From Nitrosopumilus maritimus SCM1 (GTDB lineage: Archaea; Thermoproteota; Nitrososphaeria; Nitrososphaerales; Nitrosopumilaceae), in assembly GCF_000018465.1 (NCBI RefSeq), contig NC_010085.1, forward strand, positions 1,080,001 to 1,112,000: a stretch of 32,000 bases of DNA. The letters run 5' to 3'. Shown piece by piece: positions 16,242-29,413 of this stretch. Each line of letters starts with the position of its first letter. Position 1 is the stretch's first letter. Below the pieces are notes generated by a model. The model saw only the letters and a program-made list of their open reading frames with translations. It was not told the DNA's origin and did no database searches. The position numbers were made by a program, and so were the translations under genes.

Positions 16242-16264
16242 AGTTAGTATTGATACCAAGGATT

Positions 16265-16297
16265 GTTATTTTGAAATAACTTTCAAGTTACGGCATG
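16265..16297 (-). promoter_or_regulatory. Promoter module B (orphan): CATGCCGTA-N17-AAATAAC
   Basis: 35 of the core nt match module A with 2 mismatches. It sits just beyond the S-layer terminator. No gene follows. Confidence 0.45.
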
Positions 16298-16339
16298 CTC
16301 GATAGAATAATTGTCCATAACTTTCGTTAAGTGTGATTC

Positions 16340-16376: not shown

Positions 16377-19300
16377 CTAACTTACGTTGACAGTTGTACT
16401 AACTGGTGGTGATAATGCCGTAGGATTATCAACAGACTCCCAGACGAATGCAGTAGCAGTGTATGTTCCTGCTTCAGTTGGAATCCATGATAAAGCTGGG
16501 CTGAATGATTGACCGCTAGATAGTGAACCTGTAATCCATGCTAGTGAGACGGTAACACCGTTTGCATCCTGAATCTGTACCAAGTATGCAAATGATTGCT
16601 CTCTATCCTGACCATTTGCTAAGTCAGCGCTGATTTGTACCTGTTGGTCAACGGAAACAGAATCTAAGCTGTTACCGAATGCGTCAACGGCTCTCAAGTT
16701 AGCAGCTGGTGCTCTCTCGAGAGGTGGTACTACAGTGCCAATTAGTGAAGTGGCAGTAATATCAAGTTCATCTGCAGTTGTGTATGGATCAGGTAGTGTA
16801 TTGTCCTCATATTCTGCAGTGACTGTGTCACCTTCTGAAACTCTGAGTCTGTGACCAGATGACTCATTATGAACTGTGAAGAACACAGTTCCCTCAAAGA
16901 TTCCGGTTGCCTCATTAGTCTCAGTTAAAGTTAGGTCAATACCTCCGGCATCGGAGTCAGACCACACGTCAACATTAAAGTTGTCGACTGCTTCTGGATC
17001 TAAGTTCATGTCTGGATCAATTACTCTTACAACACCTGTTCCGCTAGCTGGGTAGCTTGCCTCAAGCCATTGGACTTCACCGATGTTCCATCTGATAAGG
17101 GCAGAGCCTACAATTGTCTCATCTTCAGAGAATTCGAAGGAGATAGTAAGTCCGTCATCATCGTCAGTGGCCAAGAGACCATCTGTTGGACCAGTACCAG
17201 AAGTGGTACCTTTTGCATCGCCAGTAGTTCCATCACCATCAGCATCATGGGAAGTAAATCCTGTGAGGATTACTTCACCAGTAAAGATGCCGGTGTCAGT
17301 ACCAGTCTCGACGAGTTTATAGTTGTCAAGATCAAATCCTCTGGTAGAGACCTTAATTGGATCTCTGTCAGATTCGCCGATTTCATCAACTAGGAAACTG
17401 TCAAAGTTGTGATCTGGTGCGACGATAGTAATGTATACTTTGTCAGTCCAAGTGTATACTTTTTGGTCAAGTTCTACAGTTGCTCCGAAGTTTGAAGTGT
17501 AGATTGTCAAGTTGACATCTTCATCTTCATCTCCTACATAATCAGATCCGGATGGACCCCAGTCAGTGTACTCTAGGATGATTTCCTCACCTCTTTCTAA
17601 TCTGTCACCATCAAGTTCTTCAGGAATTTCGATGACAATCTGGAAGATACCAGTAGAGTCACCTGTTTCTCTAAAGTCAGTTGGTTCTGGGTCAAATGCA
17701 GCTGCTGCGCCGGTTACACCTTTGTTACCCATGGTAGTGGTGGCGGCATCAGAGTCCCATTCGATCAAGTCCAAGTCATAGGTCTCAGCACTGTCATTGT
17801 CCAGATCAAAGTCTGGCTCAATGAGTGTTAAGATCATGTCTGAACCGATAATGTATACGGATTTGTCAGATTGTAATACACCGTTTCTTAGGTCAAATGT
17901 TGCAGAATCAGTAACAGTATTTGCATCGCCGGATGCGTCAGCTGGATCAGTGTATTCTACTTGGAGAATATCTCCTTGTAAGATACAGTATTCTTGGCCA
18001 GATGGTGCACCGTCATCAAATCTGTTGGTATCAGCCTTACCAGTAGTACCGTCGGTAGCAGTATAGATGGTGTCATGACTGTTACATTTTGCTGATGCTG
18101 GACCGTCAGTGAATTTAATGTCTAGCTCTAACTCGAAAACACCAGCATCTGGTGCGATTTCAACCATTTCACCGAAACTTCTGATGTTTGAGATGGTTCC
18201 ATTGTTACCACCAACATCAATCTTTCCGGTTCTTTCAGAAGCGCCTGCATAGCCGAGAACTACACTATCAGAACCTCTGATAACAGAGATTTTGAGTGCA
18301 TCATCTTGGTCCATGGTATCTTCACCAGATGGGTTTTCGTCAAAGTCTGGATCGTTAATTCTGACGTGGATAGTTAGATCACCATTTGCCAATTCTTCAG
18401 TGGAATCAATAGTACTAGTGACTCCTGTTGCGTGAATTGGGAATACTGATCTTCCATTTGGAGATGCGTTTGCTGCTGCATTAGATTCTCCTACCGTACC
18501 AAATGGTACTGGATAGACAGTTCTGTCAAGACTAACTGAACCAGTGTGTGCTCTGATACCTGCGGAATCACTAACCTGAATGATTTCACCAGATGCATCT
18601 CTGAAGTCAACATAGTTAACTTCGATATCAAGACCGGTTATGGTTTCAGGAGTAGCATTGTCAGATCTACACCAATCAACTGGGATTTGGAAATCACCAA
18701 CAAAGACACCACTTGCTTTACCTGTTTCAACTAGAGTGAATCCAGTTGCACCAAGACCAGTATCACTACTTGCTTGGTTGTCATCACAGGTACCTTGGGC
18801 AGTCTTCCATACTACATCATTAAAGCTAACATCTAGTAATCTACCGAGTTCACCAAAGCTGAGATCCTGTGTAGTTGCTGAACCAACAACATCAAAGGTA
18901 TCTGCTCCAGTATCAGAGACAACAGTAAAGATGTCAATAAGATCAGAGTCTACGTTAAGATCCAAGTCTTCTACAGTTATTACTACAGTGTCAGCAATCT
19001 TGTAAGAATCAGCATCTAGAGATACAACACCAGAGTGGCTTGGAGCATCTTCTTGGTCAGATACAGGAGTTGTTACACCATCTGCACCCAAGTCATTATA
19101 GTTGACTCTTGGTGCATCCTCGTCAGTAAGATCCTCAATTACGATGAATGTTGGATCATCTGCGATTGGTGTGATACCAGCGAAGGTACCAGCATCCTGT
19201 ATGTTAATTTGGTTAACCATGACATACTCAAGTGAACCTTCAAAGATACTTGTGTTGTCACCTGTCTCTTCAGCTTCAATTCTGATTATTTGGTTTGCAA

Positions 19301-21503
19301 ATCTTTCACCAGATTGTGCACCATCATCAGTGAAACCAAATGAGAAGAAGTCCATGACGATTACTTCTTTGGCGGCGATGTCATCGACACCTGTGAAGTA
19401 CATTGCAAGTCCGACGTTTACGTTATCATCATCATTAGTTGATCCGTAAATAGCATCAGATACTGCATTGGTCAAATCAATGTAATCCTGTGACTCAGTT
19501 GAGTTGCTGACTAACAATATTGCATTGTTTTTGTCAATATTTCTTGTATCGTTGTTAACCCATGGGAGAATATTTCCTGTGGTGTTAAGCAATGCGATAC
19601 TTACTGTATCTGCCCCTAATGATTTCACATCATAGTTAAAGAAGTTAAAACCAATAGTGGTGTTATCTTCATCAACTAGAGTTTCTTTTAGGGTTTTCAT
19701 AGTTGCACTTCCTAAATCAATGATTGCAAAGTCAACATCAAAGTTTGCTGAACTGTTGGCAGTCTGTGCAGAGATTAATCTCTTACTGAATGTATCAACA
19801 GATTCAGTTGAAGTGATGTTGGTTGCACCGGTGAATGCAGTTACGTTGATGTTGAGTGTAAAGTTACCTACTTGACCTGCTGCAGTGTTGTTTATTGCAC
19901 CTGTATCAAAGATACTATCATCACCGTTTGTACCATTGGTAAAGATCAAGCTAGGAGTTCCACCCTCATCAATAGTGAATGGATCACCAGTAGCGAGTGC
20001 TGGAATCAGGGTTACGTCTGGGTTGTTTAGGTCTAAGTCTTCATCTACTCTGCTGTTTTTGTTTTGATCAGCATCAACAATGACTACTGGAATCTCTTCA
20101 CCAGAGGTCCATTCATCATCAACTGGCTGGATATCAATACTAGCAAAGGAGAATCCTACAAGGATAGTTTGAGGTGTTTCATTGTAATCGAGTGATGCAG
20201 AGGTTCCCCTCTTTGCATTATCTGTAATCTTTAGTACTGATGTATCAGATTCATCATAAGTACCAAAGACACCACTGTTTGGACCTTGTTCGGTGATGGT
20301 TACTGGGATGGAACCTACACCTAACTCACCTGTCTCTGCGGAAATACCAAATGCAGATGCATTGTTGGTGTTGGCAGTTGAGTTAAGTTGGGTAAGGATT
20401 GAATCGCCGTTATCCTGAATTGTCACAACTGGTGTGCCAGAGCTTTGTGCATCGACATCTAATTTCAATACACAATTGTCCTCACACATCAAGTTTGGTA
20501 ATGTTGTTCTCAGGGTTAATGCGCTTCCACCTGAAGCACCGTTTTCATCGAACACTTGGTAAAATGTATCAACATTGAAGGATGATGTTGTATTCTTCGT
20601 GTTGGTAGCAAATGTCCAAGAGTCTTCATCAGTTGGATCAATGTTTAACCATAAGTCAGTAATTGTTGCGTGAACTTGTGATACTCTTGGGTATACAGCT
20701 CTATCCAAACTTAATTCGGCAAATTGATCAACAGTGTCAAAAGTAAGTGTTGTTGATTGAACACCACCACCTTTGTTGTACTGTACGACAACGTTACCTG
20801 TTGGGTTTAATTCATAGAGCTGAATGAAAGGCCAGTTAGCACCATTGTTGGTACCGTTCTTTAGACCGATTTGGCCTGCACTGACACTACCAGATACTGC
20901 TACAGGATCTTTGGCTTCTCTTACAACATTGATGGTACCATTAGCAGTAGATGCATCAAGTGTATTTGCTGCACAAGTAGTAGTGATTGCACCACCACTG
21001 TTGCTACCGGTTTGTGTACCGTTACCAGTTGCTGTTGCATTTGCAACAGTAATTGGAACTGCGATACCATCTGTTTCAGTTGTTGAGAATCCCAAGAATG
21101 CTGTACCAGAGGATGCTGCACAGAATACACCAAAGTCCAATCCAGAACCTATTGTTGTAGCAGTAGAGTCTGCAATTTGGGCTTGGTCTCTGTCTGCAAA
21201 GTAACCATACCAGTTACCATCAACTGCTTGAACCATTCTCAGATTTTTGCCGTTGACAGTTACGTCTGGCTCACCTTTTGCCTCATCTGTATCATTGATG
21301 TCACTATCAATTACGACGACCTCAATTACTTGAGGTCCTGACATGTAGTTATCAAACTGTGAGTTTTCTGCGGAAACAAATAGGTTGGCGTTGGCGGCCA
21401 TTGCTTCAGGCATTACACCTGGAATTGCAAAGGTCAGTCCACCGGCAACCATAATTGTCATTAATGTAAGACTAGTTATTTTACGTCCTATTTCGTTGTA
21501 CAT
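16377..21503 (-). CDS. Giant secreted acidic multi-domain protein, probable S-layer protein
   Basis: 1708 aa with signal peptide (LTLMTIMVAGGLTFAIPGVMPEAMA). Very rich in D/E/T/G/S/V, few Cys, repetitive beta-rich segments. Size and composition match what is known of the ~1700-aa acidic Ig-domain S-layer protein of Nitrosopumilus. Confidence 0.75.
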   Translation of the reverse strand: MYNEIGRKITSLTLMTIMVAGGLTFAIPGVMPEAMAANANLFVSAENSQFDNYMSGPQVIEVVVIDSDINDTDEAKGEPDVTVNGKNLRMVQAVDGNWYGYFADRDQAQIADSTATTIGSGLDFGVFCAASSGTAFLGFSTTETDGIAVPITVANATATGNGTQTGSNSGGAITTTCAANTLDASTANGTINVVREAKDPVAVSGSVSAGQIGLKNGTNNGANWPFIQLYELNPTGNVVVQYNKGGGVQSTTLTFDTVDQFAELSLDRAVYPRVSQVHATITDLWLNIDPTDEDSWTFATNTKNTTSSFNVDTFYQVFDENGASGGSALTLRTTLPNLMCEDNCVLKLDVDAQSSGTPVVTIQDNGDSILTQLNSTANTNNASAFGISAETGELGVGSIPVTITEQGPNSGVFGTYDESDTSVLKITDNAKRGTSASLDYNETPQTILVGFSFASIDIQPVDDEWTSGEEIPVVIVDADQNKNSRVDEDLDLNNPDVTLIPALATGDPFTIDEGGTPSLIFTNGTNGDDSIFDTGAINNTAAGQVGNFTLNINVTAFTGATNITSTESVDTFSKRLISAQTANSSANFDVDFAIIDLGSATMKTLKETLVDEDNTTIGFNFFNYDVKSLGADTVSIALLNTTGNILPWVNNDTRNIDKNNAILLVSNSTESQDYIDLTNAVSDAIYGSTNDDDNVNVGLAMYFTGVDDIAAKEVIVMDFFSFGFTDDGAQSGERFANQIIRIEAEETGDNTSIFEGSLEYVMVNQINIQDAGTFAGITPIADDPTFIVIEDLTDEDAPRVNYNDLGADGVTTPVSDQEDAPSHSGVVSLDADSYKIADTVVITVEDLDLNVDSDLIDIFTVVSDTGADTFDVVGSATTQDLSFGELGRLLDVSFNDVVWKTAQGTCDDNQASSDTGLGATGFTLVETGKASGVFVGDFQIPVDWCRSDNATPETITGLDIEVNYVDFRDASGEIIQVSDSAGIRAHTGSVSLDRTVYPVPFGTVGESNAAANASPNGRSVFPIHATGVTSTIDSTEELANGDLTIHVRINDPDFDENPSGEDTMDQDDALKISVIRGSDSVVLGYAGASERTGKIDVGGNNGTISNIRSFGEMVEIAPDAGVFELELDIKFTDGPASAKCNSHDTIYTATDGTTGKADTNRFDDGAPSGQEYCILQGDILQVEYTDPADASGDANTVTDSATFDLRNGVLQSDKSVYIIGSDMILTLIEPDFDLDNDSAETYDLDLIEWDSDAATTTMGNKGVTGAAAAFDPEPTDFRETGDSTGIFQIVIEIPEELDGDRLERGEEIILEYTDWGPSGSDYVGDEDEDVNLTIYTSNFGATVELDQKVYTWTDKVYITIVAPDHNFDSFLVDEIGESDRDPIKVSTRGFDLDNYKLVETGTDTGIFTGEVILTGFTSHDADGDGTTGDAKGTTSGTGPTDGLLATDDDDGLTISFEFSEDETIVGSALIRWNIGEVQWLEASYPASGTGVVRVIDPDMNLDPEAVDNFNVDVWSDSDAGGIDLTLTETNEATGIFEGTVFFTVHNESSGHRLRVSEGDTVTAEYEDNTLPDPYTTADELDITATSLIGTVVPPLERAPAANLRAVDAFGNSLDSVSVDQQVQISADLANGQDREQSFAYLVQIQDANGVTVSLAWITGSLSSGQSFSPALSWIPTEAGTYTATAFVWESVDNPTALSPPVSTTVNVS

Positions 21504-21528
21504 GTTATTGAACTAAACCAAGATGGTT

Positions 21529-21561
21529 GTTATTTTGCAATAACTTTCAAGTTGCGGCATG
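21529..21561 (-). promoter_or_regulatory. Promoter module A: CATGCCGCA-N17-AAATAAC, 32 nt before the S-layer ATG
   Basis: The A/T box is part of the palindrome GTTATT-GCAA-AATAAC. Its position fits a TATA box for a near-leaderless mRNA. Confidence 0.55.
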
Positions 21562-21855
21562 TCCGATAAATTGTGCGTAATTTTGTTTTAATGAACAAAT
21601 TGTTCACATTGTTTATTAATGATTTTTACAATATCTTTGTTCAAGAAATTTATAAAAAATAGATTTTACAGGTTACTTCCATTTTTGGAATATTTCTTGT
21701 AACCATCAAGAAATCAAAACATCCAAATGATGCACTACATGAATTAAAAATTTCAGATACCGCAACCTAGATTTGTCCATTTGAAAGGACATTAAGCAAC
21801 ACAACTAGAGGATCAGTAATAGAACCCACACAGAAAATAAATTGGACAGTCAAAG

Positions 21856-22230
21856 ATGAGAACAACATTGGCTGTAATTTTAGTTGTAGATGATAACACA
21901 GATTTGTTAGGACTGAACACATTCATGCTAAAAAACTTAGATTATGATGTGATTACAGCCACAAATGGCGAGGAGGCAGTTGCAGCATACAAGACAGCAA
22001 GACCTGACATTGTGATCATGGACATCAAGATGCCTAAAATGGATGGTTTTGACGCCTTTTTTAAAATCAAAAAAATGAATCAATCTGCAAAGATCATTCT
22101 AATTTCTGCATATGCCATTGATGAGAAAAAACTCCTCAATGCGCAAAGCATGGGTTTGCTTAATGTCATAAACAAACCATATGAGTTTGATGACATTGAA
22201 AAACTAATCAAAGAACATGTAGGAGACTAG
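21856..22230 (+). CDS. Receiver-only (CheY-like) response regulator RR1
   Basis: Contains VVDD, the phospho-acceptor IVIMDIKMPKMDG, LISAY and INKPYE (conserved Lys). No output domain. Confidence 0.88.
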   Translation: MRTTLAVILVVDDNTDLLGLNTFMLKNLDYDVITATNGEEAVAAYKTARPDIVIMDIKMPKMDGFDAFFKIKKMNQSAKIILISAYAIDEKKLLNAQSMGLLNVINKPYEFDDIEKLIKEHVGD

Positions 22231-22259
22231 GAAATCATTGATTTGATAAAATCAAATCT
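21947..22259. repeat. Left arm of 313-bp mosaic inverted repeat (partner 24998..25310)
   Basis: 21947-22059 (113 nt) is identical to the reverse complement of 25198-25310. 22106-22259 (154 nt) has 1 mismatch against 24998-25151. The central 46 nt are diverged and there are no indels. Confidence 0.9.
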
Positions 22260-23118
22260 TTTTTAGTTTTCTTATGGTTGTAAATCTTGCCTTGTAGAAT
22301 TTTTCAGCTTCGTCTACAAATCCAAAATACCAATCCTTTAGTTCCAAATCTCTCTCAAATATTTTCTTCCATTTTGCAGTGTTAACAGATGACATTTTTT
22401 TTGAACGCAGTTGAGATGGCAGTAAAAATGTAGTGTAATACCAGCAGGATATCTGATCTGCAAGATCACTTTCGCTTATAGTCTCAAAATCATCTTGATA
22501 TTTTACGTTTAGATACGTAAGAATTTCATAAACGGGAAAATTAGAGGCTTTTGATATCTGTATGTTGTCAAGAAAAGTGCCACTTGCCAAAACCTTCAGT
22601 CTGTGTACATCGCTTCCCAGATGAGATTTAAGCGAATTCCACCTGCCAAACACAAATGGCAGAACTTTTGCATATTTTTGTGCCATTATGTCGATCTCTT
22701 TTTCCGTCATGTCCAACACATCCAAACAGTACAAGACGCCATGCAATGATAGTCGGTATAGGTTTGATGCACCCTTGGTATACCGTATTCCGTCGTTTAC
22801 AACCAATCCAATATCTAGCAACCCTGGCGTCTTCTTTCCTCTATCTCTTCTACCTACAAGCATCCTTCTGTATTCCTTTTCCTTTACCCTTACCGCTTCT
22901 GTATCCTCAAATAGCTGTATTTTTGCCATGGACCATGTAGTTAGTGGATCATTTAAAGCAAGAATCTTTAACATTTTTTGTATGTTTTCTTGATGCTTTG
23001 AACTCTTTGATTTTTTATAGGACTTGCTTCCAAACATGCGCAGTGCCGTAGGTCTTGTGTAAAGCTTATACGAATAAAGATTTCCGTAAAAAGCAACGTT
23101 TTCAGAATTATTAGACAT
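22252..23118 (-). CDS. Lineage-specific protein X1, putative winged-helix DNA-binding regulator
   Basis: 288 aa, ~50% identical to 24185..25030. The segment QENIQKMLKILALNDPLTTWSMAKI...EYRRMLVGRRDRGKKTPGLLDIGLV...YRLSLHG has the helix-turn-helix-wing pattern of MarR/PadR-like wHTH. The function is inferred only. Confidence 0.7.
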   Translation of the reverse strand: MSNNSENVAFYGNLYSYKLYTRPTALRMFGSKSYKKSKSSKHQENIQKMLKILALNDPLTTWSMAKIQLFEDTEAVRVKEKEYRRMLVGRRDRGKKTPGLLDIGLVVNDGIRYTKGASNLYRLSLHGVLYCLDVLDMTEKEIDIMAQKYAKVLPFVFGRWNSLKSHLGSDVHRLKVLASGTFLDNIQISKASNFPVYEILTYLNVKYQDDFETISESDLADQISCWYYTTFLLPSQLRSKKMSSVNTAKWKKIFERDLELKDWYFGFVDEAEKFYKARFTTIRKLKKI

Positions 23119-23148
23119 GCCGCACTATGGTAGGTTATCTCCTAATAA
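23116..23148. promoter_or_regulatory. Promoter module E: CATGCCGCA-N17-CTAATAA, overlapping the X1 start codon; likely bidirectional
   Basis: The CAT at 23116-23118 is the X1 start codon on the minus strand. Read on the minus strand the element is TTTTTTATTAG-N17-TGCGGC-ATG, the geometry of a leaderless promoter. Confidence 0.5.
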
Positions 23149-23168
23149 AAAACAAGCTAAGGGAAAAC

Positions 23169-23259
23169 AAAAAAAGACAATGTTAGCCAAGTTATGAATA
23201 TCTTGCATATGTAAACAGCAATATGTACAACCTAGTTTCTCTTGATAGAGAATTTTTTT
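23169..23259 (+). ncRNA. Candidate ~90-nt small RNA between X1 and the PEFG-CTERM gene
   Basis: The A/T box of module E lies 27-30 nt upstream. The 3' end is a hairpin, TTCTCT-tgat-AGAGAA (23237-23252), followed by T7 (23253-23259). Only a 5-codon ORF is inside. Confidence 0.22.
23237..23259 (+). terminator. Hairpin plus T7 terminator-like element
   Basis: 6-bp stem, 4-nt loop, then TTTTTTT. No plus-strand gene lies upstream except the putative module-E transcript. Confidence 0.4.
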
Positions 23260-23283
23260 ATTTCTAACTCTTTATGTGTATAG

Positions 23284-23316
23284 CATACCGCATACACGTA
23301 AACAATTCTCTAATAT
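23284..23316 (+). promoter_or_regulatory. Promoter module F: CATACCGCA-N17-CTAATAT, 27 nt before ATG 23337
   Basis: Same geometry as modules C and D. Preceded by TCTTTATGTGT (23269-23279). Confidence 0.55.
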
Positions 23317-23336
23317 TTTTTGCAATATGGCATGTC

Positions 23337-24188
23337 ATGAAAAACACATCAAAAAAATTACAAAATACCAGTGATCGTATTTTACGCTTTTTTGTTATTA
23401 CTTTTGCAATGTTAGCATGTAGCACACTTGTGGGTCTAAGCAGTGCATATGCAGCAGATGTGCAAGTAACTAAAATTCACCCAATGCCCGTAGAAGATGA
23501 CAAAGTATCAGTTGCATTTACGTTGTGTTCGAATGATGAGTATTTGGAAATGCCAAGAATTACGGTTTCCTCTGATCTTCAGACAAAGATCCTCTCACTA
23601 AAGCACGATTTGAAACCCGGTACATGTATAGGCGGAACTACAATAGCTGAGACATATGACGTATCCACCATAAACACATCCATTGTACCGCAAACGGACA
23701 GTAATTTATACAAACAAGAAACAATCGTAGACCAAAAAATAGTCTCCCAAGGAATGTCCAATGACGGTTATTTGGTAGTCAAACTTATTTCTGAACAACC
23801 ACGTGAGGGAATCTCAATGAAATTCAACCTGGAGTTCCAGGATGTTGCTGGAAACATTGTGGAAAAAATCAATTACGATATAACTGCATTGCAGGATAAC
23901 CACGTAGTATTGAATCTTCAAAACATGCATTCATCATATGGTACGTCTATACTTACTACTGATGAATTGACTTCAGACTCCCCAGTAGAAGTCAACATTA
24001 TGTTGCATGGAATCGGCGTACCGGGCCATGAAGATCAGTGGACAGGGCCAAAAGGAGAGATCATAATGTTTCATGTCGTACCCGAGTTCGGGGCAATCGT
24101 GATGTTGGTTCTCACAGTATCCGTATTGAGCATAATATTGATCTCATCAAAATTCAACACATTAAGGATATCGAACATTCAATCATGA
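23337..24188 (+). CDS. Secreted surface protein with PEFG-CTERM sorting signal (P3)
   Basis: Start moved to the ATG at 23337, because the track start at 23274 lies inside the promoter module. Signal peptide FFVITFAMLACSTLVGLSSAYA. C-terminus VVPEFGAIVMLVLTVSVLSIILISSKF. The stop overlaps the X2 ATG (ATGA). Confidence 0.75.
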   Translation: MKNTSKKLQNTSDRILRFFVITFAMLACSTLVGLSSAYAADVQVTKIHPMPVEDDKVSVAFTLCSNDEYLEMPRITVSSDLQTKILSLKHDLKPGTCIGGTTIAETYDVSTINTSIVPQTDSNLYKQETIVDQKIVSQGMSNDGYLVVKLISEQPREGISMKFNLEFQDVAGNIVEKINYDITALQDNHVVLNLQNMHSSYGTSILTTDELTSDSPVEVNIMLHGIGVPGHEDQWTGPKGEIIMFHVVPEFGAIVMLVLTVSVLSIILISSKFNTLRISNIQS

Positions 24189-25030
24189 ATCAAAACACCC
24201 AGTTTGGTAATCTTCAGTCGTATCTACGTTATACGCAACCTACTGCAAAATACCTCTTTGGCAGCATGTCATTTAGAAAGAAAAAAAGTTCCAAGCACCA
24301 AGAAAATGTCCAAAAAATGTTAGAAGCGCTTGCACTAAATGGTGCATTGACCACTTGGGAGATTGCAAAGTTGTCTCATTCTGATATATCATCTATTAGA
24401 ACCAAGGACAAAGAACTGCGCAGACTTGTTGTTGGGAGAAGGGACAGAGGAAGGAAAACACTTGGCATAATTGATGTTGGACTGGTAATAGCTAATACTG
24501 AAAATTTGGAACTAGACACTTCTAAGAAATACAGGCTGTCATTGCATGGCATATTGTATTGCCTTGACGTGCTTGATTTTAGCAAAAAAGAAATTGATCA
24601 AATGGCCTCAAACTACTCGGACATACTTCCGATGATTTTTGGAAAATGGGATTATCTTAAGTCAATTATTGGCGATGATGTTTATCGCATCAGATTATTG
24701 ACAGGGGGTCTGTTTTTGGATACCGTCCACATTACAAAAATCTCTCAAACTCCTATTTTTGAAATAATAACATACCTTAATGTGAAATATCAGGACTATT
24801 ACGAAAGTATTGATGAAAATGATTTGGCAGACCAGATATCCTATTTGTTCTATGCTGCGCTTTTGGTTCCATTTACTGTAAATGAAAACGATGAAGAAAA
24901 TAAGACTGAGAAATGGAAAAAACTTTTCGAAGAAGATGAAAATTTAAACATTTGGTTTTTTGATTTTATTAAAGAGACGTCCAAATTTTATTCAAACAGA
25001 TTTGATTTTATCAAATCAATGATTCCCTAG
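24185..25030 (+). CDS. Lineage-specific protein X2, putative winged-helix regulator (paralog of X1)
   Basis: Start set at the ATG at 24185 (MNQNTQFGNLQSY...), which aligns with the X1 N-terminus. The track start at 24038 would overlap P3 by 150 nt. 281 aa. Confidence 0.7.
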   Translation: MNQNTQFGNLQSYLRYTQPTAKYLFGSMSFRKKKSSKHQENVQKMLEALALNGALTTWEIAKLSHSDISSIRTKDKELRRLVVGRRDRGRKTLGIIDVGLVIANTENLELDTSKKYRLSLHGILYCLDVLDFSKKEIDQMASNYSDILPMIFGKWDYLKSIIGDDVYRIRLLTGGLFLDTVHITKISQTPIFEIITYLNVKYQDYYESIDENDLADQISYLFYAALLVPFTVNENDEENKTEKWKKLFEEDENLNIWFFDFIKETSKFYSNRFDFIKSMIP

Positions 25031-25310
25031 TCTCCTACATGTTCTTTGATTAGTTTTTCAATGTCATCAAACTCATATGGTTTGTTTATGACATTAAGCA
25101 AACCCATGCTTTGCGCATTGAGGAGTTTTTTCTCATCAATGGCATATGCAGTTATTAGGGTCACTTTACAATCAGAATCAAATTTTTTCATACGGGCAAA
25201 GGCGTCAAAACCATCCATTTTAGGCATCTTGATGTCCATGATCACAATGTCAGGTCTTGCTGTCTTGTATGCTGCAACTGCCTCCTCGCCATTTGTGGCT
25301 GTAATCACAT
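24998..25310. repeat. Right arm of 313-bp mosaic inverted repeat (partner 21947..22259)
   Basis: See the left arm. This arm covers the last 11 codons of X2, the shared CTAG stop overlap and the C-terminal two-thirds of RR2. Confidence 0.9.
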
Positions 25311-25464
25311 TATATCCCATATTGCTGATCGAAAACTTGTTCAACTCCAACAAATCAATGTCATCATCTACCAAAAGAACTGTTTTATCTTCGCCTTCCA
25401 AGACAAGTAAGTTATGACAGGGGCAAATATAACCACTATGAATTTTGAATGTGTTTTGGGACAA
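25027..25464 (-). CDS. Receiver-only (CheY-like) response regulator RR2
   Basis: LLVDDD, IVIMDIKMPKMDG, LITAY and INKPYE. The last 42 aa are identical to RR1. Its start overlaps the kinase gene's 3' end by 29 nt. Confidence 0.85.
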   Translation of the reverse strand: MSQNTFKIHSGYICPCHNLLVLEGEDKTVLLVDDDIDLLELNKFSISNMGYNVITATNGEEAVAAYKTARPDIVIMDIKMPKMDGFDAFARMKKFDSDCKVTLITAYAIDEKKLLNAQSMGLLNVINKPYEFDDIEKLIKEHVGD

Positions 25465-27310
25465 TGATAGAGAAGGTGACAGGGTTGTTTTTCACAGTTA
25501 TCTGCCAGCCATGTTGTTCTATCACATTTTTGCTAATTGCCAAGCCCAAGCCAGTGCCTTTTTGCTTGGTTGTAAAGAGAGGCTTGAATATGTCTTGCAA
25601 AATATCACCAGGTATGGCAGGCCCATCATTTTCAAATTCGATGGTTTTCTGTTTTTTATCATCAATCAGATTGATTTTGATGCGACCTTGTTTTTCTTCA
25701 AATGCCTGAATTGCGTTTAGTATCAAGTTGATAAAGACGATCTCAAGTTTTTCAACATCACATTTCACGGTAAAATCGATGTCAGGTTTCACTATCTCGA
25801 CATTGTTTGGTATGCTTAATGATTCAAAAGAAGAGGTTATTATTTTTTGAATTGAAACTTCGATTAAATTGATTGGTGTGATCCTCACATAGTTTAGAAC
25901 CTCGTCTATCTGATGAGTTATTCTAGATATTGCTCGGTCCATCTTTGGAAAAACAAGTTCTTTTAATTTTGGATCCATGTTGTTTGAGTTTTGTTTGATT
26001 ATGTTTGTAGCAGACTTTATGGATGCAAGTGGGTTTTTAAGATCATGTGCCACGTTTGCAGACAACTCTCCCATTGCAGCAAATCTTTCATTTTTTACTT
26101 TGGCTCTTGTTTCTGCAAGCTCTTTTTCTGTCTCTACTAGATTTTTCAAGTCAACGGACATTTTTTCAAAGGATTTTTCTATGGTTTTGATCTCGCTTAT
26201 CTGATGTTTTTGCAGCTTGACATCAAAATTTCCTTGCGCAATGTTTCTGGCAACATCTACAAGATAACTTAAAGGATTTGTTATTGATCTAGATATCAAA
26301 ATTGAAATGATCAACGCAGAAATCAGACCGATTACAGAAGCAATAATGACTGTCTCTCTGATTTCAGAAAAATCATCTAGCAACTGATGTTCTGCTTGCT
26401 CTATTATGATAGTCCATCCAAACCCTCTGAAATCTTCGAACCCTATTGATGTGGAATAGCTTACCAGGATAGGCTCTCCCAGATTATTTTTTATTTCAAA
26501 TGTATCACGGTTTTTTGATATTTGTGGGAAATACTCTATTGTTTTTTGGATGCTGGAATCTTGTTCGGTTCCAGGATACAATATTTTGCCTGACTCGTCA
26601 ACTAGGAACACACTACGAGTGCCTGTCTGCTGTAAAATCTCATGGTCGTCTACTAGATCAGACAAGATGTCATCAAGACTCAAAGCAACCCTCATCACCC
26701 CTACAAAATTTCCCTCATCATCCACTATGCGCATTCCAAAGGGAATGGAAAACTCTTCATAATTGTCATTATATTCCAATTTGCCAATGTACATCCCGTC
26801 TCTCTTGGTCAATTGCCACCATTCTTCATCGTCTTGCCTATAGTCTGACGTACCGGTACCCAGTGCTATGCTTGCTCCATATTCGTTTGTTATGAATAAT
26901 TCATCTATTATGTTATGGCCAAAAGATTCTTCATAAAAAATAATCAGCTCTGCTAGCTCCTCTGATGCATCCTCCAGGTTCACCTCAGTTAAGAATCGAA
27001 ATTCAGAGTCTGTTGTCTGTTCTTTACTATCCAAAAACTCTTCAATATCAGATATGTTTCTAAACATGTCATTTGATTTCACGATTGAAGAGCGTACTTC
27101 CTCCACCGTAGTTATTGTTTTAAAATCATCAATTCTGTTTTTGATGTATTGATCTATGTCCAAAATCATAGAGTCGGCCAAAGATGTATTGCGCAGTTCT
27201 ACGGATTTACGCAACTCTTGAGAATTTATATCAATTATGACAAATGAAGTGACTGCAAATATTAGAAACAACGCAACAACGTTTATTGTTAAAAGGATAG
27301 ATATCTTCAA
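25436..27310 (-). CDS. Sensor histidine kinase (TM - ~290-aa extracytoplasmic domain - TM - HAMP - HisKA - HATPase_c)
   Basis: TTG start. Two TM helices (aa 5-27 and ~320-342) and a HAMP-like ITNPLSYLVDVARNIAQGNF. H-box SANVAHDLKNPLASI, N-box INLILNAIQA, and G-boxes ENDGPAIP / GTGLGLAISK. Confidence 0.88.
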   Translation of the reverse strand: MKISILLTINVVALFLIFAVTSFVIIDINSQELRKSVELRNTSLADSMILDIDQYIKNRIDDFKTITTVEEVRSSIVKSNDMFRNISDIEEFLDSKEQTTDSEFRFLTEVNLEDASEELAELIIFYEESFGHNIIDELFITNEYGASIALGTGTSDYRQDDEEWWQLTKRDGMYIGKLEYNDNYEEFSIPFGMRIVDDEGNFVGVMRVALSLDDILSDLVDDHEILQQTGTRSVFLVDESGKILYPGTEQDSSIQKTIEYFPQISKNRDTFEIKNNLGEPILVSYSTSIGFEDFRGFGWTIIIEQAEHQLLDDFSEIRETVIIASVIGLISALIISILISRSITNPLSYLVDVARNIAQGNFDVKLQKHQISEIKTIEKSFEKMSVDLKNLVETEKELAETRAKVKNERFAAMGELSANVAHDLKNPLASIKSATNIIKQNSNNMDPKLKELVFPKMDRAISRITHQIDEVLNYVRITPINLIEVSIQKIITSSFESLSIPNNVEIVKPDIDFTVKCDVEKLEIVFINLILNAIQAFEEKQGRIKINLIDDKKQKTIEFENDGPAIPGDILQDIFKPLFTTKQKGTGLGLAISKNVIEQHGWQITVKNNPVTFSIIVPKHIQNS

Positions 27311-27342: not shown

Positions 27343-27378
27343 TTGTTATGTTGCATTATGGTTTTTTACAAACAGAGG

Positions 27379-27411
27379 CATACCGCATTAATTCAAGATA
27401 AGGACTAATAT
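27379..27411 (+). promoter_or_regulatory. Promoter module G: CATACCGCA-N17-CTAATAT, 29 nt before a 20-codon ORF
   Basis: Same geometry as the other modules. It is divergent from the kinase gene. Confidence 0.4.
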
Positions 27412-27701
27412 TATTTCAGACATTCAGAACTATATGCAAGGAAAATTCTGGTTAGATGAACTTTGCAAGATAATTCAGAAAGTCGAAGTTGTTTGACAGC
27501 CCAAGGCACTACCTTCAAAAAAACAATTCTTGCTACCAAAGACATTTTTTATGAAGATGTGCAGTAGTGTCTTGGTCCCCCATCAAATTGTACAACATGT
27601 AAAAAACTAATTTTAGAATATGTGTTCCATGCAATACAAAGAAAGATTTTGACACCCATTATCCCATGCGATGATAGATTTTTAAAAATGCGTTTCAAAG
27701 G

Positions 27702-27734
27702 CATGCCGTACTACGGAAGACTATCAACTAATAA
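27702..27734 (+). promoter_or_regulatory. Promoter module C: CATGCCGTA-N17-CTAATAA, 27 nt before ATG 27755
   Basis: Fixed 17-nt spacing. Contains the palindrome CCGTA-C-TACGG. Confidence 0.55.
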
Positions 27735-27754: not shown

Positions 27755-28102
27755 ATGAAACAAAAAATACTTTTGTTAGCTGCATTGTTTGCTCCTTTGC
27801 TGTTGGTATTTTCAAATATACCTGCAGCTGAAGCGCAACAAAGCACTAACTATGAGCACGATCCAAACATAGAAAAAGTCATTGTTGAAAAACGAGAAGG
27901 AACCGCAGGTTATGCAAATTATCTTGTAAAAATTTGTGCGGATGACAGTTCCATGAAACTCGGAAAGATGATGCTTCATTCAGATTTGGATCAAATACTT
28001 TTGGAGTTCAACAAAAGTCTTGCAAAAGGAGATTGTACCTTTGCAGGAGCAGTGCTCAAAAACAGCAATCTTGACAGTCTTGGTGCTACATTTCTTAATT
28101 AG
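27755..28102 (+). CDS. Small secreted protein P1 with two-Cys module
   Basis: Signal peptide LLLAALFAPLLLVFSNIPAAEA. The mature ~90 aa align without gaps to the N-terminal domain of P3, including both Cys residues. Confidence 0.65.
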   Translation: MKQKILLLAALFAPLLLVFSNIPAAEAQQSTNYEHDPNIEKVIVEKREGTAGYANYLVKICADDSSMKLGKMMLHSDLDQILLEFNKSLAKGDCTFAGAVLKNSNLDSLGATFLN

Positions 28103-28337
28103 CTCCCAAGACTTGATTATTTTTTATCAATCAATGATTCATACTTCAAAGATCGATCATGTATATTGGTAGAATCTGTCAACATATTTTCCATTTTAAA
28201 CATTGCAGAAATTAGTTATGAAATTTGGAAAAAAGTTTCCATACGTTATTCAATGGGATTTCATCACAATACTTGAAGCAGTTTTGTTAAACAAAGCAAT
28301 GAAAGGATATATTTTTTGGTTAAGGGATATAAAAAGA

Positions 28338-28370
28338 CATACCGCATTATGGTAGACTATCAACTAATAA
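28338..28370 (+). promoter_or_regulatory. Promoter module D: CATACCGCA-N17-CTAATAA, 28 nt before ATG 28392
   Basis: Fixed 17-nt spacing. The spacer TTATGGTAGACTATCAA closely resembles those of modules C and E. Confidence 0.55.
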
Positions 28371-28391: not shown

Positions 28392-28916
28392 ATGACGAAA
28401 AAACAAACAGTCATCATGACAATGCTTCCAGCACTAGCAATGATGCTACTAATTACTCCAACAGTAGAACAATCATATGCCCAGGTGCAAAAATCCACTC
28501 ATCCTGATGTACAAAGACTATCACCCAGTTCATTCGGCATAAAGACTGCGGACAGGGTATGCGGAGACAAGCTGTGTTCTGAAATAAGAGAACCTGTAAT
28601 CAACATAGAAGAAGAAGATACCATTCAAGAAGTCACGGAGGAGTTGGATCATATGCCTGATCTTGACTTGCTTAACATAATCAAATACAGGAAAAATTCT
28701 GTTGATCCAGTTTCTCATGTCTTAATTTACAAGATTACTGGCGGCACATTAAACCTAGCAGACATTGCCATAGAAGCATCATCAGACATTAATGAAGTCA
28801 AATACAACGTAACAGCACTGAGTGCAGAAAAGTCGACCACAAACGTTGTACGCATAATGGCTTTAGACCCAGATTCCATCAATGTACAAGTGGTAGGTTA
28901 CACACTAAAACAATAG
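28392..28916 (+). CDS. Small secreted protein P2
   Basis: Signal peptide VIMTMLPALAMMLLITPTVEQSYA. The C-terminal ~60 aa show weak gapless similarity to the P1/P3 module (KI...SD...). Confidence 0.65.
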   Translation: MTKKQTVIMTMLPALAMMLLITPTVEQSYAQVQKSTHPDVQRLSPSSFGIKTADRVCGDKLCSEIREPVINIEEEDTIQEVTEELDHMPDLDLLNIIKYRKNSVDPVSHVLIYKITGGTLNLADIAIEASSDINEVKYNVTALSAEKSTTNVVRIMALDPDSINVQVVGYTLKQ

Positions 28917-29171
28917 TCCCTGTAAACACCTATTTTTTCTTTTATTATTTTTACAGTGTTTGTTTAGTGAGAAACTAGATTGAATCCCATAATGTTGAGC
29001 CATTTGTTCATAAAGCATTTTCACAATTTCATTATTCTAGGGATTTTTTAGGAATTACCTTCCAATGACCAGGTCCAGCATCAATCACATGTTTCAATAG
29101 TTTCTCAAGTTCAGTATATTTTTTTCCACAAGAACAATAATTCAAGGATTACTTACTGAATTATGCAAAAA

Positions 29172-29202
29172 ATATTAGTATTGTCTGATTGGATGCGGTA
29201 TG
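29172..29202 (-). promoter_or_regulatory. Promoter module H (orphan): CATACCGCA-N15-CTAATAT
   Basis: About 75% identical to module F over ~60 nt, including the upstream TCTTTATGTGTAT and the downstream TTTTTTGCA. Only a 37-codon TTG ORF follows. Confidence 0.4.
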
Positions 29203-29413
29203 CCCATACACATAAAGAATCAGAAGTAAAGATAGTTTCTAACAAGAAAACTAGGATTCAGACTCTAGTTATTCAAAAGGACTGGGGCTTTGGTTTGACT
29301 CTGAGTTCTGCAAATACTTAAGAAAATATTGTCACAAGTTAAGACTTAAAATCAATATTTTTTATAAAATATTTGCAAGGACATAATCAAATAAACTATC
29401 AGATATATCCATG

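Follow-up and report, generated by a model that had tools for sequence, protein, structure and literature searches.

A conserved cassette in Nitrosopumilus maritimus SCM1: a two-component system with its regulator apparently split into two genes

How does a response regulator that consists of a receiver domain and nothing else reach gene expression? Roughly three quarters of thaumarchaeal response regulators are such bare receivers for which no output is known; in the 2018 census of Galperin et al. most receiver-only (REC-only) regulators lie in no conserved neighbourhood, and interactions between REC and helix-turn-helix (HTH) proteins "remain to be demonstrated" (PMC5847659). The locus Nmar_1202-1207 of Nitrosopumilus maritimus SCM1 raises this question in a concrete form. 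It was studied here in a window of 32,000 nucleotides (contig NC_010085.1, positions 1,080,001 to 1,112,000), to whose positions the coordinates of SCM1 features refer, and it holds one sensor histidine kinase (HK), two receiver-only response regulators (RR1 and RR2), two members of an uncharacterized protein family that we call X (X1 and X2), and a gene for a surface protein (P3). An earlier reading, made from the sequence alone and referred to below as the sequence-only reading, had proposed that each receiver acts on the separate winged-helix protein next to it, and that this protein in turn acts on promoters with the motif CATRCCGYA. The analysis reported here partly supports that reading, whose core idea held up in each test made of it (adjacency, predicted fold and motif). 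The X-RR-HK cassette is very probably a functional unit, and we read it as a two-component system with its regulator split into two genes; that X supplies the receiver with a separate DNA-binding output, reading a conserved promoter box, is a claim that we hold at about even, perhaps slightly better, and both the RR-X contact and the DNA binding are inferred.

The six genes of the locus are the following, with L numbers here and below denoting loci of related genomes and with cassette types 1 and 2 as set out in the second section:

21856-22230, + strand: RR1 (Nmar_1202, ABX13098), receiver-only response regulator (open reading frame, Pfam Response_reg).
22252-23118, - strand: X1 (Nmar_1203, ABX13099, WP_012215586), arCOG10580, type-1 copy (open reading frame; clusters with L038 and L039).
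23274 (longest open reading frame) or, as is likely, ATG 23337, to 24188, + strand: P3 (Nmar_1204), PEFG-CTERM surface protein.
24185-25030, + strand: X2 (Nmar_1205, ABX13101), arCOG10580, type-2 copy.
25027-25401 (longest open reading frame to 25464), - strand: RR2 (Nmar_1206), receiver-only response regulator of the type-1 cassette.
25436-27310, - strand: HK (Nmar_1207), type-1 sensor histidine kinase (Pfam).

Conservation and composition of the cassette

The order X(+), RR(-), HK(-) was found in all 37 loci first fetched and in every later locus with enough sequence, in both paralog types and across at least four genera (Nitrosopumilus, Nitrosarchaeum, Nitrosotenuis and Nitrosotalea). Conservation of the X-RR adjacency elsewhere had been named beforehand as one of the points on which the proposal could fail, and the adjacency is kept in all informative loci. 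Among 50 non-redundant loci, 19 show the CTAG-type 4-nt overlap of the X and RR stop codons, and in 47 the two stops lie <=6 nt apart. Because three loci from 68%-GC thaumarchaeal metagenome-assembled genomes (L055-L057, 7001-8181) retain the convergent pair, with an X that is ~40% identical and with no adjacent kinase, the X/RR pair is the core unit. The X, RR and HK trees are all split alike into two types, and the distances of the three proteins correlate with r = 0.82-0.87. As a matter of layout, stops so close together leave no room for terminators between the convergent genes.

All loci other than that of SCM1 carry a single cassette, save for a lone third X paralog in Nitrosarchaeum sp. 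ECS25A1 (L040, 8001-16846). There a type-2 X-RR-HK cassette is followed by the third paralog (~40% identical) and then by an S-layer homolog, which is 64% identical to the S-layer paralog Nmar_1201 of the window. Adjacency to an S-layer gene was considered as a conserved feature of type 2 and rejected, being present in the window and in L040 (two genera) and absent from L042 and L050-L054, with L032 and L041 too short to tell. The PEFG-CTERM gene, around which the sequence-only reading had seen the locus arranged, likewise proved not to be conserved with the cassette in other loci. In Ca. Nitrosotenuis chungbukensis MY2 (L036, 6001-7133), X and RR align in out-of-frame pieces, as pseudogenes or through sequencing errors. 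A metagenome scan for further type-2 loci gave seven loci only, mostly of type 1.

With regard to the signalling proteins, HK matches the Pfam domains HisKA (42.1 bits; cut-off 26.9), HATPase_c (69.9 bits; cut-off 26.4) and HAMP, with dCache_1 below its cut-off, and two hydrophobic, transmembrane segments (starts 1-12 and 317-326) flank a ~290-aa extracytoplasmic Cache-like sensor part. Residues H422 (in AHDLKNP), N532, G563, G585, G587 and G589 show no variation across the 40 orthologs compared. RR1 and RR2 match Response_reg only, with 86 bits each (cut-off 30.2), and the match runs from end to end of their 124 aa with no further domain, as the sequence-only reading had it; because the receiver is not fused to a DNA-binding output domain, both fall outside OmpR/PhoB, NarL/FixJ, NtrC and LytR. 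All 41 receivers compared have conserved D56, S/T84, K107 and P108, and D12 and D13 are conserved in all 20 sequences that reach this far; RR1 has D12, D13, D56, S84 and K107. HK lies directly upstream of RR, in the same orientation and in one operon with it, in the window and in every HK-bearing locus. By domains, residues and gene adjacency, HK and the receivers are thus those of a two-component system, for which phosphotransfer is predicted.

The gene order and strands of the sequence-only reading were recovered as stated, as were the ATGA shared by the P3 stop and the X2 start (24185-24188), by which X2 is translationally coupled to P3, and the CTAG shared by the X2 and RR2 stops (25027-25030). 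Its 29-nt overlap of HK and RR2 rests on the longest open reading frame (ORF) and falls away: the extension of RR2 to TTG 25464 contains in-frame stops in the two closest relatives, and the conserved start, TTG 25401, gives 124 aa and a gap of 34 nt to HK. P3 matches TIGR04296 at residues 268-296 with 41.8 bits (cut-off 25) and so carries the PEFG-CTERM sorting signal it was said to have. Its likely start is 23337 rather than 23274, because ATG 23337 opens a signal-peptide-like N-terminus, as in the orthologs; the promoter box described below and a TATA-like sequence lie inside the 63 nt of 23274-23336. The RefSeq X2 protein (WP_238523163.1) is shortened to 219 aa, and the family alignment favours ATG 24185 and 281 aa. 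A published table gives the same mapping of Nmar_1202-1207 and lists X1 and X2 as arCOG10580, "uncharacterized protein" (PMC12448741 Dataset S4); arCOG10580 is marked there as exclusive to ammonia-oxidizing archaea, and N. maritimus alone has it among the three species compared (PMC12448741). Literature searches of the library at hand (locus tags in text, arCOG10580, N. maritimus promoter mapping) found neither the cassette nor the box described.

Two cassettes and their rearrangement in SCM1

The sequence-only reading had counted two RR/X pairs in SCM1. The tail-to-tail layout stands; the independence of the pairs does not, as they derive from one duplicated unit and the current neighbours are mismatched. 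An inverted segmental duplication takes in the RR genes together with their 3' flanks, so that the RR/X pairing in SCM1 is one observation and not two. At the RR 3' ends a repeat search found inverted arms of 165 nt that are 98% identical, and a second pair of arms (21886-22074 and 25183-25371) forms an inverted repeat with 85% identity. The 165-nt arms are:

22099-22263, no strand: repeat arm 1, running from the 3' end of RR1 across the intergenic palindrome GATTTGATAAAATCAAATC to the final 4 codons of X1; proposed recombination site.
24994-25158, no strand: repeat arm 2, where the final 12 codons of X2 meet the 3' end of RR2 (repeat search).

A perfect palindrome, GATTTGAT-AAA-ATCAAATC, is present in both arms (22240-22258 and 25000-25018); the copy after RR1 is intergenic and is followed by a T-run, and the copy in the second arm falls within the X2 coding sequence.

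Comparison with the related loci assigns the SCM1 genes to types. X2 belongs to a separate clade of X (61-68% identity), whose members have X-RR-HK cassettes of their own, and the X1 orthologs of L038 and L039 are 83-86% identical. In their N-terminal part, the RRs that adjoin these X1 orthologs are 80-82% identical to RR2 versus 66-68% to RR1, while the RRs that adjoin X2-type genes are 72-73% identical to RR1 versus 58-62% to RR2; kinases adjoining X1 orthologs are 69-79% identical to Nmar_1207. RR1 is itself composite, with N-terminal two-thirds of type-2 origin and a type-1-like C-terminal third that is 98% identical to RR2. The neighbours now found in SCM1 are X1 (type 1) beside RR1 (type 2 in its N-terminal part) and X2 (type 2) beside RR2-HK (type 1). 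Judged from these identities, SCM1 holds two paralogous cassettes side by side, type 1 with X1, RR2 and HK (Nmar_1207) and a kinase-less type 2 with X2 and RR1. A single inversion of 22264-24993 (X1-P3-X2) between the repeat arms explains the swapped neighbours, and gene conversion copied the RR2 3' end over the C-terminal third of RR1. Undoing the inversion gives SLP2< (box>) RR1> X2< P3< (box>)(box>) X1> RR2< HK< (box<), and the inversion model is supported because the right half of this arrangement is the order of L038 and L039, P3< ... (box>) X> RR< HK< (box<). Because the inversion put mismatched types side by side, adjacency in SCM1 does not identify partners.

A programmed invertible DNA switch was considered and rejected, as no recombinase or invertase gene is annotated among Nmar_1199-1211 (whose products are a lyase, Pth2, the S-layer paralog, the proteins of the six-gene locus, hypothetical proteins and one with an HD domain); the repeats, being 3' ends of paralogous RR genes, indicate homologous recombination. 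A tblastn search upstream of RR1 for a remnant of the type-2 kinase gave noise-level matches only. Published transcript levels are ~20-50 transcripts per million (TPM) for X1, RR2 and HK, ~5-7 TPM for RR1 and ~3-4 TPM for X2, the latter two being the lowest of the locus (PMC12448741 Dataset S4), and they fit a history in which type 1 is complete and type 2 reduced.

The X family and its promoter box

A search with X1 found 358 homologs, none of them annotated, and an exhaustive family search gave just 78 cluster representatives, so that the family is small and lineage-restricted. X1 and X2 share 52% identity, close to the ~50% given before, and the family was rightly called uncharacterized: no Pfam family is consistent among 41 members, no NCBIfam family matches X1 or X2, and profile searches of the PDB with full-length X and with its N-domain returned nothing relevant. 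An AlphaFold2 model of X (m9ca1358ac609), made from an alignment with divergent relatives, reached a predicted local distance difference test score (pLDDT) of 88.8 and a predicted template-modelling score (pTM) of 0.87, with blocks of residues 11-110 at pLDDT 91-97; it superseded a poor first model from a shallow alignment (pLDDT 66.8). The N-domain is predicted to contain helices 41-55, 61-68 and 73-88, a strand at ~59 and a hairpin of strands 89-92 and 95-98, i.e., a winged-helix topology (~41-123), with a second hairpin after the wing and residues 125-288 modelled as all helical. Residues 1-124 carry a net charge of +13, and R77, K81, R84, R85, R90 and R93, on the putative recognition helix and wing, are invariant. 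A Foldseek search of the model against the PDB gave no chain at E <= 0.001; ~37 of the 50 best hits, classed by name and not significant as matches, are winged-helix proteins of the MarR, GntR/FadR, ArsR, DtxR, ScpB and MukE/F types. The N-terminal winged helix of the sequence-only reading therefore holds as a confidently predicted topology and not as demonstrated membership in a known family, no match to any being significant.

Two other identities for X were rejected. The output domains TackOD1 and NitrOD1-5 (PF18551, PF18549, PF18550 and PF11537) are unmatched in X1, X2 and 39 relatives at E up to 1, and TackOD1 is Cys-rich with five CXXC motifs, whereas X has no CXXC. A histidine phosphotransfer-like role for the C-domain was set aside because conserved His is confined to the N-terminal region.

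CATRCCGYA has eight sites in the window versus 0.32 expected and 106 across the related loci versus ~8 expected. Its earlier assignment to promoters is borne out by this enrichment and needs correcting as to which promoters and which strand: read on the opposite strand it is TRCGGY followed by ATG, part of a conserved box TG(C/T)GG(C/T)ATGCC, and it marks foremost the promoters of X itself and of HK-RR. On the X side, in every lineage, a TTATTAG-like TATA box has its centre ~27 nt before the first base (A) of the start codon, which TG(C/T)GG(C/T) abuts. A distance of ~27 nt is the usual archaeal spacing from TATA to transcription start, and the X mRNA is accordingly predicted to be leaderless. 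The X promoter of the 68%-GC lineage keeps TTATATTAG-N17-TGCGGT though the start codon is GTG. On the HK side, a TATA box, a ~19-nt spacer and TGYGGYATGCC lie 56-87 nt upstream of HK and co-oriented with it, followed by a second TATA box.

The box is the highest-information block in 73 promoters. Its ATGCC is as conserved on the HK side, where no ORF starts, as it is at X, which places the constraint on DNA or RNA and not on coding. Of 46 loci, 31 have the exact box at the start of X and 32 have it upstream of HK, the remaining loci having variants. Its density in the first kb is 0.8 per kb on the X side and 0.6 on the HK side (shuffle expectation 0.016 per kb); on the X side it drops to ~0.15 per kb between 3 and 6 kb, and on the HK side to <=0.04 from 3 kb outwards. 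No gene family other than X starts on the box: 34 of the 38 ORFs of at least 100 aa that do so are X, and a general leaderless initiator is on this count an unlikely identity for it. Divergent ORFs are faced by 110 of 192 boxes, the ATG lying 40-49 nt away in 81 of these 110. Neither the box nor its repeats had an Rfam match.

The box also varies together with the wing of X. Where the box reads TGCGG, residues 91-92 of X, which belong to the wing hairpin, are [K/R]D (17 of 17 loci), and where it reads TGTGG they are [M/I/T/S][A/S] (16 of 17); in the lone exception, L042, the X start is mis-called and the HK-side box obeys the rule. The X-side and HK-side boxes of a locus are always of the same variant.

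The box-bearing elements of the window and the S-layer gene between two of them are:

23116-23155, - strand: X1 promoter, with TATA TTTTTATTAGG ~25-34 nt upstream and TGCGGC abutting the ATG; the + strand reads CATGCCGCA.
27374-27418, - strand: HK-side element, with TATA ATAATATTAG, a ~19-nt spacer and TGCGGTATGCC, co-oriented with HK.
23237-23336: P3 promoter region, with the box TGCGGTATG on the - strand at 23284-23292, 45-53 nt upstream of the likely P3 start.
21527-21568, + strand: TATA and box element (TGCGGCATG at 21553-21561), 295 nt ahead of RR1 and in the same orientation.
16263-16304, + strand: TATA and box copy TTGTTATTTTG..TTACGGCATG, motif match at 16289, downstream of the S-layer paralog.
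27697-27734, - strand: orphan X-type promoter with no X ORF, back-to-back with a secreted-protein gene starting at 27755.
28333-28370, - strand: orphan X-type promoter, near-identical to the L038 X promoter, back-to-back with a gene starting at 28392.
16377-21503, - strand: Nmar_1201, secondary S-layer protein (ORF).

At the HK-side element, the A of the box ATG is 71 nt upstream of the HK start, and a second TATA-like box, CTTTATG, lies ~30 nt upstream. X2 has no box promoter of its own. The element at 21527-21568 and the Nmar_1201 promoter are arranged back-to-back, at the site that a type-2 kinase gene would be expected to occupy; with 16263-16304 the element forms a 42-nt direct repeat (90% identical), which suggests that an insertion or duplication brought the S-layer paralog between copies of the promoter element. 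An inverted copy of the P3 promoter-region element is present at 29167-29250, and several of the box elements in the window are copies of 38-80-nt repeats. Orphan X-type promoters (TATA, spacer and TRCGGYATG) are seen also at 23283-23319 and 29167-29203, and all four stand back-to-back with small secreted-protein genes.

The box-linked genes of the window are Nmar_1201, X1, P3-X2, Nmar_1208 and Nmar_1209. The ATG of Nmar_1201 is ~50 nt from the box at 21553, and its product is a secondary S-layer protein with 91% similarity to NmSLP (PMC11153153). Across the loci, the divergent genes that face a box comprise two small Cys-rich families, P3-like PEFG-CTERM proteins (in L038 and L039 the P3 ortholog precedes X and is on the opposite strand), a further secreted family and paralogs of the S-layer protein. 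In most genomes (e.g., L039, L019, L001 and L050) the Cys-rich (CxxC) families stand back-to-back with boxes to either side of the cassette; one family counts 32 members, from 25 loci, the other 18, from 17 loci, and none adjoins the cassette of the window. In biofilm RNA-seq, Nmar_1201 has a log2 fold change of +4.13 and the other box-linked genes of +0.54 to +0.80, adjacent genes without a box ranging from -0.22 to +0.18 (PMC12448741 Dataset S4). A proteomics supplement does not list the locus genes.

A possible mechanism, its rivals and its relation to known systems

The findings can be joined into a mechanism in which the Cache domain of HK would sense an extracytoplasmic ligand, HK would phosphorylate the single-domain receiver, and the phosphorylated receiver would bind X, a cytoplasmic protein serving as its separate output domain. 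X would bind TG(C/T)GG(C/T)ATGCC through its winged helix. As the box spans ~-6 to +5 of the predicted leaderless X start and of the start of the HK-RR promoter, this would amount to autoregulation, with X on the box repressing its own promoter and that of HK-RR by covering the predicted start. The same box lies ~44-52 nt upstream of the divergent genes, just beyond their TATA box and B recognition element, from where X could activate them; these candidate targets encode small secreted, PEFG-CTERM, Cys-rich and S-layer-paralog proteins, and the output would be a remodelling of cell-surface and secreted proteins. In its full form, as a "split response regulator" in which the phosphorylated receiver docks on the helical C-domain of X and thereby switches its binding to the 11-nt box, with repression of its own genes and activation of divergent surface genes, this scheme is put forward tentatively, as possible and somewhat short of probable.

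Several points weigh against reading X as a box-binding output of the receiver. The distance correlations among X, RR and HK could come from vertical descent alone. The covariation of box and wing is suggestive and not statistical proof, since the TGTGG loci are one clade and the change is a single evolutionary switch. As a site for a dimeric winged-helix protein, the box is short and lacks symmetry, and its distribution is known for the cassette loci and the window rather than for whole genomes. Fusions of X to REC or to other domains were absent among the 10 longer family members, and transcript changes of the cassette genes are small in the one dataset examined. Finally, a box on a predicted transcription start could be a core-promoter (initiator) element for the basal machinery.

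This last point belongs to the main alternative, which we consider unlikely. In it X is a partner of the receiver or kinase and not a transcription factor (e.g., an adaptor, a phosphatase-like modulator, a scaffold or an RNA-binding protein), and the box is an initiator element read by, for instance, one of the numerous paralogs of transcription factor B (TFB), so that the genes would be co-expressed without X touching DNA. X indeed matches no DNA-binding family significantly, the box sits ~27 nt downstream of the TATA centre, exactly where an initiator is expected, and the promoter cassette has been copied around the locus as the repeats noted above; the biofilm study, moreover, has TFBs upregulated alongside Nmar_1201 and includes a sheet of genes correlated with the TFB Nmar_0013 (PMC12448741). 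Set against this are the high-confidence winged-helix prediction, in which basic residues of the putative recognition helix and wing are invariant, the switch of wing residues along with the box base at both promoters, the concentration of boxes around the cassette, and the use of the box ATG as a start codon by X alone.

Two further possibilities are compatible with the model of X as the receiver's output and concern SCM1 itself. It is rather unlikely that only the type-1 set (X1, RR2 and HK) works and that RR1 and X2 are decaying leftovers of a cassette that lost its kinase and promoter, in which case the layout of one kinase and two regulators would have no design logic. The missing type-2 kinase, of which no remnant is seen upstream of RR1, the lost box promoter of X2 and its dependence on P3, the low transcript levels of RR1 and X2 and the cut RefSeq model of X2 would all fit such decay. 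Against it, both ORFs are intact, RR1 has all phospho-acceptor residues and X2 the family-invariant ones, another lineage stably retains an X/RR pair without a kinase, and gene conversion keeps the C-terminal third of RR1 identical to that of RR2. More doubtful still is a branched pathway or phosphate sink, in which HK would phosphorylate both receivers and RR1 would drain RR2 or address X2. One kinase is present with two intact receivers, and the C-terminal third of a CheY-like receiver, which usually forms the output face, is the part that is nearly the same in RR1 and RR2. The first helix of a receiver, by contrast, usually carries kinase specificity, and the N-terminal part of RR1 that includes this helix is type-2-like and differs from RR2 at many positions, so that efficient phosphotransfer from HK to RR1 is not expected; the layout is, furthermore, unique to SCM1. 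Finally, it is improbable that the tail-to-tail layout serves as coupling at the RNA level, with overlapping 3' ends setting the ratio of X to HK-RR by antisense pairing or transcriptional interference and with no need for the proteins to interact: the close stops persist despite sequence divergence and a shift in GC from 34% to 68%, and the junction copy in the window holds a perfect palindrome, but such coupling leaves the shared box, the winged-helix prediction and the co-duplication of X with RR and HK unexplained, and it is compatible with our preferred explanation rather than an alternative to it.

The cassette, read as a kinase, a receiver and X as the receiver's separate output, resembles several known systems and differs from each. 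Like classical bacterial two-component systems of the OmpR/PhoB and NarL type, it pairs a membrane kinase with Cache-like, HAMP, HisKA and HATPase_c parts with a neighbouring receiver and a predicted autoregulatory site; unlike them, its receiver has no output domain, and the presumed DNA-binding part is a separate, convergently encoded 285-aa protein of no known family. CheY, a single-domain receiver, acts by protein contact with the flagellar switch. CheY-type receivers share with RR1 and RR2 the stand-alone form of ~120 aa, the full set of phospho-acceptor residues and an output through protein binding, whereas no chemotaxis locus is found here and the proposed partner is transcription factor-like. 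GntR/FadR regulators likewise combine a winged-helix N-domain with an all-helical C-domain, and the Foldseek hits to FadR and NanR span ~250-300 columns; these matches are far from significant (probability <=0.13, template-modelling score ~0.15-0.2) and come with no sequence similarity, so that the likeness is an architectural analogy only.

Closer in phylogeny are the thaumarchaeal pairs of a receiver-only regulator and an ArsR-type HTH protein, which also place a stand-alone REC beside an HTH gene in the same phylum; those pairs are divergent, "occasional" and assigned to arCOG03067, whereas the cassette described here is convergent, strictly conserved, accompanied by a kinase and built on the unannotated arCOG10580 (PMC5847659). 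The FilI-FilR1/FilR2 system of Methanosaeta harundinacea, as the census presents it, is again archaeal, with one kinase, a receiver-only protein (FilR2) and a winged-helix regulator (PMC5847659). By the same account FilR1 has its own REC fused to wHTH-DUF1724 (PMC5847659; primary PMC3991700), while X has no REC and is unrelated in sequence.

The locus thus offers, in a cultured marine ammonia oxidizer of global importance, a strictly conserved partner gene for a receiver, a predicted cis-element and a candidate regulon of surface proteins, so that the question of how archaeal receiver-only regulators reach gene expression becomes directly testable. The recent inversion and gene conversion in SCM1, which reshuffled the partners of two paralogous cassettes, represent a natural experiment on signalling specificity. 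If the proposed role of X is true, the cassette would provide a transcriptional output route, the first to be defined, for the stand-alone REC domains by which archaeal signalling is dominated, and it would open a way into the study of how one of the most abundant organisms of the ocean remodels its surface and its biofilms.

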